From positions 1 through 64,000 of the forward strand of contig JAJDDQ010000078.1 of assembly GCA_029260215.1 (NCBI GenBank): DNA of 64,000 bases, read 5' to 3'. The notes under the pieces are model-generated. The model was given only the letters and a program-made list of their open reading frames with translations. It made no database searches and was not told where the DNA came from. How positions within the stretch are numbered: the stretch's first letter is position 1; each line of letters begins with the position of its first letter. Below are positions 179 to 56,399 of the stretch, one piece after another. This DNA is from Phycisphaerae bacterium (GTDB lineage Bacteria > Planctomycetota > Phycisphaerae > UBA1845). The position numbers were made by a program, and so were the translations under genes.

Positions 179-314
179 TGGTTTGGGTCCGGCTGCGTCC
201 TTGATCCTGAAATAACACGTGCCGGGCGTGCCCGACGTTTGTCATTATATTACCCGTTCGGGAACGCGGGTGGCCGCCTTGTCGTTTTACTCTTTCTCCG
301 GACACGTCCCCGAT

Positions 315-1520
315 ATGCCAAGCCACAGTGATCAACGAAGCAGCTCCGGATCACTCCAGTGCTGCCCCGTCTGCGATTACGATCTCACCGGCTTGCCGGA
401 GGCGTATGCGTGCCCGGAGTGTGCGTTTGAGTACGAGCCCAGCATTCGCGTCATCAACGAGCGACGCATTAACCCTTGGTTGCGCGGGATATTCGCGATC
501 ATCACGCTTGCATTAGGCGTGGGCGCAGTGCGCGGCGGATTCCTATGGTTCGAGAGATCAGGGCACTCCGATTACGTTGGCGTATTGGTAGCTGTGGCGG
601 GTGCAAGCATCATGTTGATTGCGGTTATCCTTGCGTTTCAGGCGTATCGACGTCTCAAACGCCAAACTGGCAAGATTGTCTTGACGTGCGCGCAGATCGT
701 TTACGTAGACTTTTTCGGAAACACGAAATCAGCTATTTGGCGCGACACTTCAAGCGTGACACTGACTGGTTCGGAAACACGTGTGTCGGTCGTTGATCGA
801 TCCGGGCACAACATATTCGTGGTCCCAACCGAGTTCTTCGGCTCCCCGCGCAAAGCGATGGAATGCGTAGCCGAAATCAGAGCGTTCTGGTACGAACACT
901 TTATCCTTCGGCCCGATGCGCCCCACGGAAGAATAGTTCTGTCTGATGACGGAGCATCGAATTCGAGAGCAATGTGCAAAGACGAGCAAATCGAGCGGTG
1001 CCCGATTTGCTCGTATATCCTTAAGGATCTGCCGCAACCGCCGACCTGTCCCGAATGCGGACTGCAATGTGGCATAAGGCTACTTGTGTTTGGCGGTGAG
1101 CGCGCTCGTTCCTTGACTGAGCCAATCATTGGGATTGGCTACGCGATCATCGCCATCTTTGCCGGGACGACCGTAGGATTCGGCAAGCCCCTAACATGGA
1201 TCTTTGCGGTGTTCGCGGCGACTACGTTGCGCAAAGTCTACCTTGCGCACCGCTACAGCACCACGAAAATTGCGATGTCGGCCACGGGATTCGTCGCAAC
1301 ATTGGCCGACCGCAGTGTCGTGCGATTGTCCTGGGATGCCTTCGGTGATGCCGGTTTCGATCACTATCCCTTCAACTCAGGACGGGTTGTTGTCCGTCGA
1401 CGTGACGGAGTGAGATTCCTTTCGATAGCATCGCACGTGTTTGCGGGTCTTCCGCATAAATACGAATTTGTAATGATGACCCGAGCCTATCGGTCCGTCT
1501 TTGCGAACTCGAAATTGTGA
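315..1520 (+). CDS. membrane protein with two repeated modules: Zn-ribbon (CPVCDYDLTGL...CPECAFEY), TM hairpin, then a soluble beta-rich domain
   Basis: ORF track 219..1520, with an ATG at 315 giving MPSHSD...; an alternative start is the GTG at 219. Two CxxC-x12-15-CPEC modules lie at aa ~50 and ~265, with hydrophobic stretches after each. This internal duplication is mirrored in the downstream paralog. Confidence 0.6.
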   Translation: MPSHSDQRSSSGSLQCCPVCDYDLTGLPEAYACPECAFEYEPSIRVINERRINPWLRGIFAIITLALGVGAVRGGFLWFERSGHSDYVGVLVAVAGASIMLIAVILAFQAYRRLKRQTGKIVLTCAQIVYVDFFGNTKSAIWRDTSSVTLTGSETRVSVVDRSGHNIFVVPTEFFGSPRKAMECVAEIRAFWYEHFILRPDAPHGRIVLSDDGASNSRAMCKDEQIERCPICSYILKDLPQPPTCPECGLQCGIRLLVFGGERARSLTEPIIGIGYAIIAIFAGTTVGFGKPLTWIFAVFAATTLRKVYLAHRYSTTKIAMSATGFVATLADRSVVRLSWDAFGDAGFDHYPFNSGRVVVRRRDGVRFLSIASHVFAGLPHKYEFVMMTRAYRSVFANSKL

Positions 1521-1662
1521 GACGACGGTTTCACAAAGACGGAAGATTCAGCATTGAGGTGGCCAACAGATATTGTGCCGAAAAACGCACTACTCGATCA
1601 GCGGTGATCCGGTGACCACCAAAACTTGACGATGCGTTGTGCGGCAGCGATGTTGCGCAATC

Positions 1663-2808
1663 ATGAGCGGTTTGATGAACGATTCCGGTAAATCCCTTGG
1701 TGGCCCCACGCGCTGCCCCGTCTGCGATTACGATCTTACCGGCTTGGCGGATGTTCACAGGTGCCCGAAATGCGGCCTGCATCTTGACATGGAAGTGCTT
1801 GTCTGTGAAGGCAAGTTTCCTTTTTCAGTGCCGTTCTATCTTTCCTGTCTTGTGCTTGTTGTGACTGGCTGGCTTTTGTTCGACAGGTACTACCTGAATG
1901 GCACGGGTAGGCTCATCGGATTCCGCGACTTGTTTGTTTGGGGTCCGCTCGGCGCGATGGGCATTTTCATCTACGGAATCTCCAGGGAACTCGCTTGGCG
2001 CTCCGTGAAAATCGTCTTGTCTTCTTCCGAATTGCTGCTGGTGAATCGAAATGGTAAATCGAGGAGAGTAAATCTGTCCGACATCTTCCAAATATTTCCC
2101 TATTCTTGGATGCCGTATGTTAGGGTTCAGGGACATTTCGGACAGACGATCATGATGCTGCCTCCCTTCGCTTCGGGAAATTATTCAGAATTTCTGCGCA
2201 CAGCCGACCGCCGTGTGAATGCGCTGCGCAACGCGAGCGCCCGCTGCCATGTATGCGGGTACAACTTGTCAGGCCTGCCGGAAGCATATACCTGCCCGGA
2301 GTGTGCGTTTGAGTACGATCCGAGCGTTAGTGTCATCGATGAGCAACATTTCTCTTTCTGGTCATATGGTGTGTTCGGAGCAGCAACACTAATCGTAGGC
2401 CTGACGTTGGCTGGACCGAGAATCCAAAGCCTTCGTTTCGGTTCCGGCGGCGGGTCCGAGATTGCGCTCTTCATCGCGGGAACGGCGATCATTTGGATTT
2501 CGATCACACGAATGTTCCGAGCGTATCGGCAAATATCGCGTCACAAGGCGAAAATCGTCCTAACCACGACGGGCGTCACGTACGTAGCCCCCTTTGGCGA
2601 AGCGAAGACGACGACGTGGGGCGACATAGCACGTATCGACTTGATCAGCCTTGGGCGCGGGATACGGGTCGTCGATCAAGCCGGGCGATTCGTCTTCATC
2701 GTTCGGCCAAGCTTCTTCTCTTCCGTACACGGTGCGTCAGTATTCGCATCGGAAGCAAGAACGCTTATGCAAGCCGGTCGCGATGGACCCGATCCTCCAA
2801 ACACGTAG
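1663..2808 (+). CDS. paralog of the upstream gene: double Zn-ribbon/TM/soluble-domain membrane protein
   Basis: ORF 1639..2808; the ATG at 1663 (MSGLMNDSGKSLGGPTRCPVCDYDLTGLADVHRCPKCG) is placed by analogy with the upstream gene. The second module reads CHVCGYNLSGLPEAYTCPECAFEYDPSVSVIDE. The KIVL(T/S)...V-Y-V-PFG blocks are repeated as well. Confidence 0.6.
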   Translation: MSGLMNDSGKSLGGPTRCPVCDYDLTGLADVHRCPKCGLHLDMEVLVCEGKFPFSVPFYLSCLVLVVTGWLLFDRYYLNGTGRLIGFRDLFVWGPLGAMGIFIYGISRELAWRSVKIVLSSSELLLVNRNGKSRRVNLSDIFQIFPYSWMPYVRVQGHFGQTIMMLPPFASGNYSEFLRTADRRVNALRNASARCHVCGYNLSGLPEAYTCPECAFEYDPSVSVIDEQHFSFWSYGVFGAATLIVGLTLAGPRIQSLRFGSGGGSEIALFIAGTAIIWISITRMFRAYRQISRHKAKIVLTTTGVTYVAPFGEAKTTTWGDIARIDLISLGRGIRVVDQAGRFVFIVRPSFFSSVHGASVFASEARTLMQAGRDGPDPPNT

Positions 2809-4794: not shown

Positions 4795-6705
4795 TTATTC
4801 GCTGTCGCCGAAGAGTTCCGCCGCGTCGAGCTTCTTGAACAGGAGTTGGGCTTGTCCCAGGGGGGCGCCGTCTTTGAGCGGCTGCGTGGCGACATCCCAG
4901 CTTAGTCCGTCCGCGCCCAGATTGAACATTTGCAGACACTTGGCAGCGCTGTGCGGCAGGAAGGGAGCCATCAGTGTGGTTAATGTGCGTGCGGTTTGTA
5001 GGCAGACATTCACCGCTCGACCGCAGGCGTCCATGTCGGTCTTGCGGGATTTGAACGGCGCGGTGGTGTCGAAGTAGCCGTTGCCGTCGCGGGCCAGTTG
5101 CATCACACGCGCCAACGCGGATTTGAAACGGAACGCCTCCAGCTCAGCGGCTGTTTCATCGGCTGCGCTTTTACAGCGGGCCAACTGCTCGTTGTCCACG
5201 GCGTCGCGTTCGCCGGCGGGCGGCACTTTTCCGTCGAAGTATTTGTGTGCGAATGTGATCGAGCGATTGAAGAAGTTCCCCAGAGCAGCCAGCAATTCGC
5301 CGTTGTTTCGTGTGATGAAGTCGTCGAGGTCGAACACTGTGCGTTGCGTTTCCGGTGCGATGGCCGTCAGGTAATACCGCAGCGGGTCAGGGTCGAACGA
5401 TTTGAGATAGTCCTCGATCCAGACGGCTGTCCCGCGCGATTTGCTGATCTTCTCCTCGTCCTTGCCCGGAAATTTGATGTTCAAAAACGCGTTGGCCACC
5501 ACGTTGGACGGGAGTTGGTACTCGCCGGTTTCGCCCTGAAGCGAATCGCTGTCGTGCGTGGCCAGCATCATGGCTGGGAAGGTCAGCGCATGAAAGACGG
5601 TGTTGTCCTCGCCGATGAAATTCACCACCTTGCAATCGGGGTTCTTCCACCACTTCTCATACGATTCCCAGCCCTCGCCAAGCTGCTCGCACAGTTTGGC
5701 TGTAAAGGAAATGTATCCGATGGGCGCGTCGAACCAGACGTAGAGCACCTTGCCCGTCGCGTCGGGATCCTCCAGCGGCACGGGCACGCCCCAATCCAAG
5801 TCACGCGTCATCGCCCGATCGGGCAGGCCGCCCGCGATTTCGTGCGCGACACCTGCTTCCCTAAGCATTTCGACGGCCCGTTCCCGTTCGGTGCGCGTTT
5901 CGAACGTCAAACGCAGGTGCAGCTTGTCGTCGCCGAGCGATTGACCCTTGTGCGGAGGCAGTTTCGCATGCACGTCAGCCACCTGCTCAGCCGACGCAAA
6001 GCGCACATCAACTGCCGGAATCATTTGGCCTAGTGTGAAGTTGATGACCGTCGAGCGCCAGGTTTCCTTCTTGCTCTCAAGCCAACTGCGAAGCTGATCC
6101 TCCAGTCGATCGAGACGTAAATACCAATGAATCGTCTCGCGCGGTTCCGGCTTGGTGCCGCTCATGGCGCTGACCGGATTGACAAGTTCGAGCGCGTCGA
6201 GACTCTTGCCGCAACCCTCGCACTGATCGCCGAACGCATTCGGGCTGTCGCAATGCGGGCAGGTGCCCTTGACGAATCGGTCGGGGAGAAATTGCCCGGC
6301 TTCGGTGTCGTAAAGCTGCTTCGTGGTTCGTTTGGTGAAGAAGCCCTTCTCGTGAATTTTGAGGAAGAAATCCTGGCTGATGCGTTCGTGCATCTCGACG
6401 AAGTCCGGCTGATGCGTTCCGCCGTAAATGTCGAACTCAATACCCAGCCCGGCGAAGCTGTCCCGTTGCGAGGCGTTGAAGCTCGCGGTGAGTTCCTCGA
6501 CGGATCGCCCCTGCTCGCGGGCGGTTTTGACGGCTGCTACCCCGTTGTCATCGCTGCCGCAGATGAAGCGTACGTCGGCACCGGTAGCCCGCAGATATCG
6601 GATGTAGATGTCGGCGGGGAGGTAGGCTCCTGCGATGTGCCCGACGTGCAGTTTTCCGTTGGAATAGGGCAATCCCGATGTAATCAGATACCGGCGTGTT
6701 GTCAT
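4795..6705 (-). CDS. metG: methionyl-tRNA synthetase
   Basis: HIGH motif (KLHVGH), KMSKS motif (KISKSRG) and zinc-knuckle cysteines (CPHCDSPNAFGDQCEGCG) are present. The start is moved to MTTRRYLITSGLPY (6705) within track ORF 4795..6771. Confidence 0.9.
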   Translation of the reverse strand: MTTRRYLITSGLPYSNGKLHVGHIAGAYLPADIYIRYLRATGADVRFICGSDDNGVAAVKTAREQGRSVEELTASFNASQRDSFAGLGIEFDIYGGTHQPDFVEMHERISQDFFLKIHEKGFFTKRTTKQLYDTEAGQFLPDRFVKGTCPHCDSPNAFGDQCEGCGKSLDALELVNPVSAMSGTKPEPRETIHWYLRLDRLEDQLRSWLESKKETWRSTVINFTLGQMIPAVDVRFASAEQVADVHAKLPPHKGQSLGDDKLHLRLTFETRTERERAVEMLREAGVAHEIAGGLPDRAMTRDLDWGVPVPLEDPDATGKVLYVWFDAPIGYISFTAKLCEQLGEGWESYEKWWKNPDCKVVNFIGEDNTVFHALTFPAMMLATHDSDSLQGETGEYQLPSNVVANAFLNIKFPGKDEEKISKSRGTAVWIEDYLKSFDPDPLRYYLTAIAPETQRTVFDLDDFITRNNGELLAALGNFFNRSITFAHKYFDGKVPPAGERDAVDNEQLARCKSAADETAAELEAFRFKSALARVMQLARDGNGYFDTTAPFKSRKTDMDACGRAVNVCLQTARTLTTLMAPFLPHSAAKCLQMFNLGADGLSWDVATQPLKDGAPLGQAQLLFKKLDAAELFGDSE

Positions 6706-6962
6706 AGCGTGGGTCGTTCCGTCCTTTCCAATTGCGGTGGGAGAGATTCTATCCCCATCGCGAAACGCCACAACCGCACGTTACCCACGCGCCCGCAGCG
6801 CATGAGAAAAAGGGGGCTGTCGGGTGCCCCGCCTCTTTAGAGGTGGGGAAGTCGAATGGTTCTTGGATTTGACTTTCCCGCGGCTAAAGCCGTGGGGCAC
6901 CCAATTCTTCAATTGAGTCGTGAGAATGCACCAGCCATACGCCCGAATCACATGAGAAAAAA

Positions 6963-52518: not shown

Positions 52519-53034
52519 TTACGAACTTGGCGAGACGCATTGCTCATCGAGGAATTCTCTCCATCGATCTGTTTCCGCAAAATCTTTCAATATTCGATTT
52601 CGTTCAATGAGGAATGAACGCATGTATCTTGTTAGAAAAACGCGCTCCGCGATGCGGCCGAGAGCCCAGAGGGGGGCTTGAAACCTGAATTCATCCGTCA
52701 TTTCCGTTAGGCCGGAGATTTCTTTGAATAGGTGCGTGTGTTTCATGGATGCAAATGCGCCATCCACCATTTCATCCGTAAAAAACAAGGGACGTTCGAA
52801 TTCAGTTAATCTGATTTTCAACTGCTGCGTCACGCCGAAGTGTTTTGCTTGCCAAGTGACTTCCTCTCCCAGCCCGATAAGGCCGGTCGTCTTTCCCTCA
52901 ATCGCTACTTCTCTCGTGCCGGAGGTTGATGCCATGTGTGCGTCAATACTTCGGGATAAATCAAAAACTCGTTCTATCGGAGCGTTGACGATTGTTCTGA
53001 TGTTAATTAACGGCATAGCCTTCATACTCAGCAT
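52519..53034 (-). CDS. SRPBCC superfamily protein (polyketide cyclase/START-like)
   Basis: INIRTIVNAPIERVFDLSRSIDAHM… is a typical Polyketide_cyc2 N-terminus. GC is locally low (~48%). Confidence 0.6.
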   Translation of the reverse strand: MLSMKAMPLINIRTIVNAPIERVFDLSRSIDAHMASTSGTREVAIEGKTTGLIGLGEEVTWQAKHFGVTQQLKIRLTEFERPLFFTDEMVDGAFASMKHTHLFKEISGLTEMTDEFRFQAPLWALGRIAERVFLTRYMRSFLIERNRILKDFAETDRWREFLDEQCVSPSS

Positions 53035-53681
53035 ACGTCCAGGTCTTTCGCAATGTCACGCCCGCACTCTGGACAGCGAAGCCCGCCGGTGAGGCCAAAC
53101 AGATCGTAACCGCAACATTCGCACACGCGCAGCCCATACCGTGCCAGCGCCCGGCGGACGGACCTCAGGCGGCCGATCCTCGCCACGTCCCACGGCATGA
53201 TCCACTTGTAGATAGCGAAAATGAGAAAAACGGGTGCCGCCGCCGAAAACATGATTCGCCCGCCGGTGATACCAGAGGCTCCGAAGATCATCCACGGTAT
53301 CGGAATGATCAGCGGAGCGATGCTGTAGAATGGACGCACTTCATAGTGCAGCGCCGCGCCGTGTTCCGCCTCCTCGATTCGCAGCGCGATCCGTGTCCAT
53401 GAGTTGACCGAAGCCGTCCGCTGCCGGAAGTTGAAACCATCCACCGATTCACGCCCGATCAAGTTGTCGGCATCGAGCACGACTCGAACAGCCTGGCGAA
53501 TCTGTGCCGCGTCGGCGGTCGTTTGCCATCGTTCGCGAAGGATGGCGGGACCGTTTCGATAGTACCAGCCGGCAAAGCGGTAGTATGCAGCAGCCTCAAA
53601 CCAAAGGGCCATCTCGAAGACCACGATGAGGATCAGCGGCACAAGAAGGTCCGTCGGGATTCTGGAGAGAAACGAAGTCAT
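53028..53681 (-). CDS. membrane protein with C-terminal Zn-ribbon (family member)
   Basis: C-terminal segment is CECCGYDLFGLTGGLRCPECGRDI. There are 4 TM helices. It overlaps the SRPBCC gene by 7 nt. Confidence 0.55.
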   Translation of the reverse strand: MTSFLSRIPTDLLVPLILIVVFEMALWFEAAAYYRFAGWYYRNGPAILRERWQTTADAAQIRQAVRVVLDADNLIGRESVDGFNFRQRTASVNSWTRIALRIEEAEHGAALHYEVRPFYSIAPLIIPIPWMIFGASGITGGRIMFSAAAPVFLIFAIYKWIMPWDVARIGRLRSVRRALARYGLRVCECCGYDLFGLTGGLRCPECGRDIAKDLDVC

Positions 53682-56045: not shown

Positions 56046-56118
<73 letters not shown>

Positions 56119-56399
56119 AATTCTGTAAACCTCTGTAAGTATTAGACTTATGGCGGCTTCTTGGTGGGTCGCAACCCGTCCGAGAATCCGATTTTCCGTC
56201 CGGATTAACCGCCCAAACATCTTGGCGACGCCTCCCGTATCGTCCAGACGGGGAATAGGCGCTCGCAATCGCCCTGCGTATTGTCGTGGTCGAGCCAGCT
56301 GGGCAGCTTAACGCGCTGATCTCCATCCGCTCTCGATCCTCGATCCCGCCGTCCGATGGCATCCCCGCCGCGACATCCAGCTTGCGGTTTGCCGCTCTT

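Follow-up and report, generated by a model that had tools for sequence, protein, structure and literature searches.

The Planctomycetota have an unusual membrane organization, and few of the proteins specific to their lineage have been characterized. At the left end of a 64,000-nucleotide stretch of DNA from a Phycisphaerae bacterium (positions 1 to 64,000 of contig JAJDDQ010000078.1, assembly GCA_029260215.1; this whole stretch is called the window below), two neighboring genes, here named A and B, lie on the same strand with a 142 bp gap between them and encode membrane proteins in which a small four-cysteine motif, a hydrophobic segment and a soluble domain each occur twice. What kind of proteins are these, and what might they do? 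The comparisons described here identify A and B as tandem paralogs within a large unnamed family of inner-membrane proteins that has so far been found almost only in Planctomycetota. The combination of domains is an undescribed one within the membrane-anchored bacterial proteins that carry a pleckstrin homology (PH) domain, and no named family fits it.

An initial annotation, made from the window's sequence, had described each gene as two copies of a zinc ribbon/transmembrane (TM) hairpin/soluble domain module, and this arrangement is borne out for both genes (Table 1). The four ribbons have the identical spacing CxxC-x12-CxxC (residues 17–36 and 229–248 of A, 18–37 and 195–214 of B); after each come two hydrophobic helices, seen both in hydropathy profiles and in AlphaFold2 (AF2) models, and then a domain of about 80 residues that opens with K-I-[VA]-[LM]-[ST] (at A120, A318, B116 and B297). 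The literal motif first proposed for the ribbon (C-P-[VI]-C-x-Y-[DN]-L-[TS]-G-L, then CPEC after three to five residues) fits A module 1 fully but is too strict for the other three, which deviate from it at one to three non-cysteine positions: B module 1 ends in CPKC, B module 2 starts with CHVC and A module 2 reads CPICSYILKDL. The repeat extends beyond the cysteine motif. With their ribbons removed, the A and B modules score 76, 71, 39 and 35 bits against a hidden Markov model (HMM) built from 56 other family members only, and the highest score among 1000 shuffled control sequences is 10.4 bits; all four units therefore have the TM and C-terminal region in common, and the repeat is genuine.

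The initial annotation had also raised the possibility of a bacterial PH-like fold after the hairpin, and structure prediction supports it. In the AF2 model made for A module 1 with an alignment of 67 family sequences (predicted local distance difference test score [pLDDT] 85.9, predicted template modeling score [pTM] 0.75), a small ribbon is joined through a short strand, with a conserved V-[IF], to a pair of long helices, after which come six strands and a C-terminal helix; the predicted soluble domain has the antiparallel β-sandwich closed by a C-terminal α-helix that characterizes the PH-like superfold. The full-length model of the gene B protein (pLDDT 74, pTM 0.55) has the same secondary-structure order in both modules. 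Hydropathy, the AF2 models and a positive-inside bias all indicate that two TM helices directly precede a PH domain inside the cell. Throughout the family, the stretch that follows the second TM helix has 3.5 lysines plus arginines against 0.3 aspartates plus glutamates, and the loop that joins the two helices is only a few residues long; thus the ribbon and the PH domain both face the cytoplasm, and nothing substantial lies outside the membrane.

Table 1. Positions of genes A and B, of their module parts, and of a further ribbon-bearing gene of the window
Feature	Position (nt)	Strand	Remarks
Gene A	315..1520	+	401 aa, two zinc ribbon/TM hairpin/PH modules; open reading frame (ORF) 219..1520, ATG at 315
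A module 1 zinc ribbon, CPVCDYDLTGLPEAYACPEC	363..422	+	Cys4 motif; cysteines conserved in 67-sequence alignment
A module 1 TM hairpin, residues 54–116	474..662	+	AF2 helices 45–73 and 78–107 of the construct (offset +9, starts at residue 10); hydropathy agrees
A module 1 PH-like domain, residues 120–197	672..905	+	Six strands and C-terminal helix
A module 2 zinc ribbon, CPICSYILKDLPQPPTCPEC, divergent	999..1058	+	
A module 2 TM hairpin, ~residues 266–313	1110..1253	+	Hydropathy, alignment with other modules, family HMM match
A module 2 putative PH-like domain, from KIAMS at residue 318	1266..1517	+	Ribbon-less module scores 39 bits against independent family HMM
Gene B	1663..2808	+	381 aa (377 aa with start at 1675), two zinc ribbon/TM hairpin/PH modules; ORF 1639..2808
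B module 1 zinc ribbon, CPVCDYDLTGLADVHRCPKC	1714..1773	+	
B module 1 TM hairpin, residues 56–113	1828..2001	+	AF2 helices 56–78 and 87–113
B module 1 PH-like domain, residues 116–189	2008..2229	+	AF2 strands 116–165 and helix 174–189; family HMM 35 bits
B module 2 zinc ribbon, CHVCGYNLSGLPEAYTCPEC	2245..2304	+	
B module 2 TM hairpin, residues 232–293	2356..2541	+	AF2 helices 232–258 and 264–293
B module 2 PH-like domain, residues 297–374	2551..2784	+	AF2 strands 297–347 and helix 355–374; family HMM 71 bits
TM-rich membrane protein, 217 aa	53028..53681	−	Ribbon of the same type at C-terminus, CECCGYDLFGLTGGLRCPECG, nt 53064–53123

The family to which A and B belong is large. A profile of the four A and B modules, run in an exhaustive HMMER search of 1.84 billion representative sequences, matches 2030 cluster representatives at E ≤ 1e-3 and 199 at E ≤ 1e-10; a word-indexed homolog search with gene A returned nothing beyond genes A and B. 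Most of the top matches are 165–215 aa long and carry the whole profile once, and a minority of 350–460 aa carry it twice, as does the gene A protein, in which two stretches match. The single module, and not the two-module form of A and B, is therefore basic to the family. In the 67-sequence alignment the ribbon has the consensus CPxCxY[SD]LxGLPxxHxCPECGFxYD with a constant central spacing of 12; three of its cysteines occur in every sequence and the fourth in 66 of the 67, so the CxxC pairs noted in A and B are conserved in their relatives, and the Y, L, G, L, P, P, E and G positions are each more than 90% conserved. In the TM and C-terminal regions conservation is weak and limited to isolated sites: one tryptophan, a few glycines and an F-[FL]-G-S turn ahead of the final helix. 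Where the source databases name the relatives at all they are "hypothetical protein", and a search of the literature for the motif, and for ribbon, PH and Planctomycetes together, did not turn up any account of such proteins.

A degenerate DNA pattern for the ribbon, for which about 1e-5 chance matches would be expected in the whole collection (our own estimate from information content), was compared with the GTDB representative genomes and is present at at least 119 loci; the window's own genome is not among the matches listed. Among those matches, 112 of 119 loci are labeled Planctomycetota (mostly Phycisphaerae, but also Planctomycetales) and three are unclassified; the remaining four, labeled Alphaproteobacteria, Fermentibacteria, Gemmatimonadota and Syntrophobacter, all come from metagenome-assembled genomes (MAGs), and it is possible that they were mis-binned. 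Several genomes contribute at least four loci each to these matches, and tandem arrays are common there: one locus (L041) has six ribbon genes, and the biggest array listed (L081), on a Planctomycetaceae chromosome (CP030884.1, 5360001–5368000), has eight in 8 kb. The family thus defined is large, is present in several copies per genome, and has a clear and confidently modeled architecture.

How does this architecture relate to families that already have names? The initial annotation had recognized no named family, and none fits: the module is not covered by any model of Pfam or NCBIfam, and the window proteins obtain only generic or sub-threshold zinc-ribbon matches. The gene B protein barely passes three named ribbon models in whole-protein score (C1_2, 31.1 against 26; DUF4776, 27.1 against 27; Cas12f1-like_TNB, 27.0 against 26.3), but homology over the length of these domains was not found; it passes only by the sum of two knuckle stretches of ∼25–30 residues, and the gene A protein fails all three, so these are best regarded as generic matches to a cysteine motif. 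Likewise, a sequence profile search of the PDB returned only generic zinc-finger and rubredoxin matches. The small DUF983 protein (PF06170) also carries a TM hairpin after a zinc ribbon but has no PH domain, and its weak matches to 13 of the 67 members (best E 0.0022) are all well below threshold.

The nearest known kind is found among the membrane-anchored bacterial PH (PHb) families bPH_6 (PF10756), DUF2244 (PF10003), bPH_2 (DUF304) and bPH_4 (DUF1200) and in the proteins YdbS and YdbT (see below), with all of which the present family has the hairpin and PH domain in common. Membrane-anchored PHb families have two TM helices and an intracellular PHb domain that lacks strand β1, and they tend to form rings (Xu et al. 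2010, PMC2817789). Matches at the sequence level are faint. No window protein reaches the gathering score of the bPH_6, bPH_2, bPH_4 or DUF2244 model, and the PH-type hints that they do give are very weak (DUF2244, E 0.23; Vps36 GLUE, E 0.16; also CheF and STM3941). When 60 family members without their ribbons were scanned individually against Pfam, bPH_6 matched three (best E 1.3e-6), DUF6232 five and DUF2244 one (weakly), and bPH_2 is absent from the families matched by either the 67 members or these 60. With matches so few, the family is best described as a remote relative, rather than a member, of these PHb families. It differs from all four PHb families in the conserved Cys4 ribbon that opens every unit, which they lack, and in being essentially confined to Planctomycetota among the ribbon loci listed. 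It adds a new domain combination to a poorly understood group of proteins.

The two-module genes probably have a history different from the internal duplication that was first suggested. Although the repeat within each gene is real, A module 1 and B module 2 form the closest pair of modules (39% identity over 177 aa, BLASTP E 2e-37); the remaining pairs, including both within-gene pairs, are 23–25% identical, and the two modules of one gene are no closer to each other than to unrelated family members. A neighbor-joining tree of modules likewise places A module 1 and B module 2 as sisters and leaves A module 2 and B module 1 each isolated. For these reasons A and B are most likely fusions of array members that had already diverged, and not recent internal duplications. 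In the same tree, the two halves of several other two-module proteins are each other's closest relatives. Since halves pair in this way within some proteins and not in A and B, and since some have no second ribbon, two-unit proteins apparently arose repeatedly. Single-unit and fused two-unit forms thus coexist in the family, which offers a natural way of testing whether these PH modules function as dimers.

In three other two-unit proteins (L029, 1224–2378, − strand; L038, 4126–5199, − strand; L089, 6803–8002, + strand), the second unit has lost the canonical ribbon or retains a degenerate version of it. Some fused proteins can thus do without the ribbon in one half at least.

The first ribbons of A and B are indeed nearly identical, as the initial annotation had pointed out, but only within a 40-nt patch. 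The ribbon DNA of A module 1 is a mosaic (window 360–460 compared with 1711–1811 and 2242–2342): its first knuckle is identical to B module 1 at 37 of 40 nt, including 11 of 12 third codon positions, and the 47 nt after it match B module 2 at 41 positions. Such a mosaic suggests short-tract gene conversion between the ribbons of the paralogs, which may have taken place after the fusions.

The ribbon is not restricted to A, B and proteins like them. In the window, the product of a gene at 53028..53681, outside the tandem pair and of different architecture, has a ribbon of this type; no PH block was recognized in this protein and it has no Pfam or PADLOC match. In P0063, a 1090-aa metagenomic representative, a Ser/Thr protein kinase domain precedes a ribbon, which is followed by many TM helices, a further pair of ribbons and, at the end, a TM hairpin/PH unit; it is the only fusion to a signaling domain among the relatives seen.

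What, then, might A and B do? The architecture, fold, cytoplasmic orientation and distribution described so far can be taken as shown, and any role has to be proposed on top of them. The adaptor role that was one of two suggestions in the initial annotation is plausible, and the evidence leans somewhat toward a particular form of it, in which A and B would be adaptors anchored at the cytoplasmic face of the membrane, with PH domains that self-associate and ribbons that bind a common partner. Each unit consists of an N-terminal Cys4 ribbon that presumably binds zinc, a membrane helical hairpin and a bacterial-type PH-like domain, with one unit in most members and two in A and B. By analogy with other membrane-anchored PHb proteins, the PH domains may associate with one another, and a two-unit protein would be a covalently fused dimer. 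The ribbon may dock a common cytoplasmic partner in the manner of the N-terminal zinc ribbons of Caulobacter ZitP and Myxococcus GltJ, which are protein-binding switches (PMC11135422). This idea derives from that precedent, from the much stronger conservation of the ribbon than of the rest of the protein, and from its presence on other membrane proteins (the 53028–53681 product and P0063). The likeness is one of arrangement, in that a membrane protein carries a small Cys4 ribbon at its cytoplasmic N-terminus; ZitP and GltJ differ in ribbon spacing and consensus from the CxxC-x12-CxxC with Y-x-L-x-GLP-x2-H found here, and their partner domains are GYF or DUF3426 instead of PH. The corresponding Pfam model, Zn_ribbon_4 (PF13717), matches only 6 of the 67 members, weakly (best E 0.0023). 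A ribbon under such strong constraint and reused on other membrane proteins could serve as bait for finding a conserved cytoplasmic partner.

Some points weigh against this adaptor model. The constraint on the ribbon could stem from the folding needs of a 30-residue domain and not from a common ligand. The gene B model is of moderate confidence as to how its two modules are arranged with respect to each other, as its pTM indicates. Finally, clustering of all flanking ORFs and Pfam annotation of 160 immediate neighbors at the at least 119 loci revealed no family-wide partner gene; guilt by association therefore gives nothing firm, because no neighbor is conserved across the family.

An unlikely alternative is that A and B are accessory proteins like YdbS and YdbT, whose TM hairpin and PH units would help the cell to export membrane-active peptides or small molecules or to withstand them, with the diverged tandem copies having different specificities. 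Bacillus subtilis YdbS (two TM helices, one PHb domain) and YdbT (six TM helices, three PHb domains) are encoded in tandem, and their relatives DdE and DdF of Enterococcus faecalis are needed for export of a leaderless bacteriocin (PMC8657885). These proteins (COG3402/COG3428) resemble A and B in having repeated units of TM hairpin plus PH and in being encoded by paralogous side-by-side genes on the same strand, and the identity of the unit, the multi-unit proteins and the tandem genes (PMC8657885, PMC2817789) all speak for the comparison, as do the tandem arrays of fast-diverging paralogs in the present family. On the other hand, YdbS and YdbT have no zinc ribbon and no detected sequence match to the present family, which, as noted above, has no bPH_2 match. 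A role in export or immunity has been shown for DdE and DdF alone. An ABC transporter gene does occur somewhere in 8 of the at least 119 loci, but it is usually kilobases away or not beside the family gene, and no bacteriocin-like genes were seen near family genes; A and B themselves have neither kind of gene adjacent, and their neighbors in the window are an S9 peptidase gene downstream of B and then, two genes from B, the methionyl-tRNA synthetase (MetRS) gene (4795–6771, − strand).

It is rather improbable that the family belongs to a conflict system, as membrane toxins or immunity proteins of the CptA/YgfX kind or as abortive-infection effectors. This would account for the many divergent copies and for the lower guanine plus cytosine content of the pair (0.549 for gene A and 0.541 for gene B, against 0.607 for the peptidase gene, 0.592 for the MetRS gene and a window mean of 0.591), and the Cpta_toxin model (PF07254; two TM helices and a cytoplasmic domain) does weakly match 2 of the 60 ribbon-less members (E 0.0014). 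These two matches fall short of membership in that toxin family, however, and no small partner gene recurs beside the family genes; nor do antitoxin or defense genes recur nearby, and PADLOC gave no match. Moreover, several members occupy conserved sites beside the genes for seryl-tRNA synthetase (SerRS), arginyl-tRNA synthetase (ArgRS) and RsfS across classes, which suggests that they are long-standing chromosomal residents and not parts of mobile islands.

Those three are the only recurrent genes among the 160 immediate neighbors, which are otherwise varied housekeeping genes. Each recurs at four or five loci (loci with translation-related neighbors are L008, L018, L043, L068 and L117; L041, L067, L103 and L105; L023 and L081), with SerRS directly downstream on the same strand as the family gene, ArgRS divergent and RsfS convergent; the ArgRS and RsfS positions are common to MAGs labeled Phycisphaerae and Planctomycetaceae. 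These recurrences, together with single occurrences of RtcB/Archease and of FtsJ as neighbors and the MetRS gene near B, prompt the speculation, to which we attach little probability, that the ribbon is a Planctomycetota-specific "address" domain, carried by many membrane proteins and recognized by one common cytoplasmic partner, and that the ribbon/hairpin/PH proteins form platforms on the membrane to which some of the translation machinery is tethered. The recurrent neighbors may instead reflect synteny retained beside essential genes.

The least probable role is that of a transmembrane sensor relaying an extracytoplasmic signal, the other suggestion in the initial annotation: membrane proteins with cytoplasmic interaction domains could be so construed, and P0063 does carry its kinase, but a family with an inter-TM loop of a few residues and both soluble domains in the cytoplasm has no substantial extracytoplasmic part with which to sense, and no output domain or two-component neighbor was found.

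The gene calls themselves vary slightly among sources. Gene A is 416 aa long in the NCBI call, and in two independent Logan assemblies with DNA identical to the window the pair is called as 401 aa (315–1520) and 377 aa (1675–2808). The possibility that A and B are one gene broken by a frameshift or an assembly error was considered and rejected, because they lie in different frames, are 142 bp apart, and have the same sequence in the two independent Sequence Read Archive assemblies. Far from this pair, Rfam and tRNA scans detected a single RNA gene in the window, a tRNA-Phe (GAA) at 56047–56119 on the + strand.

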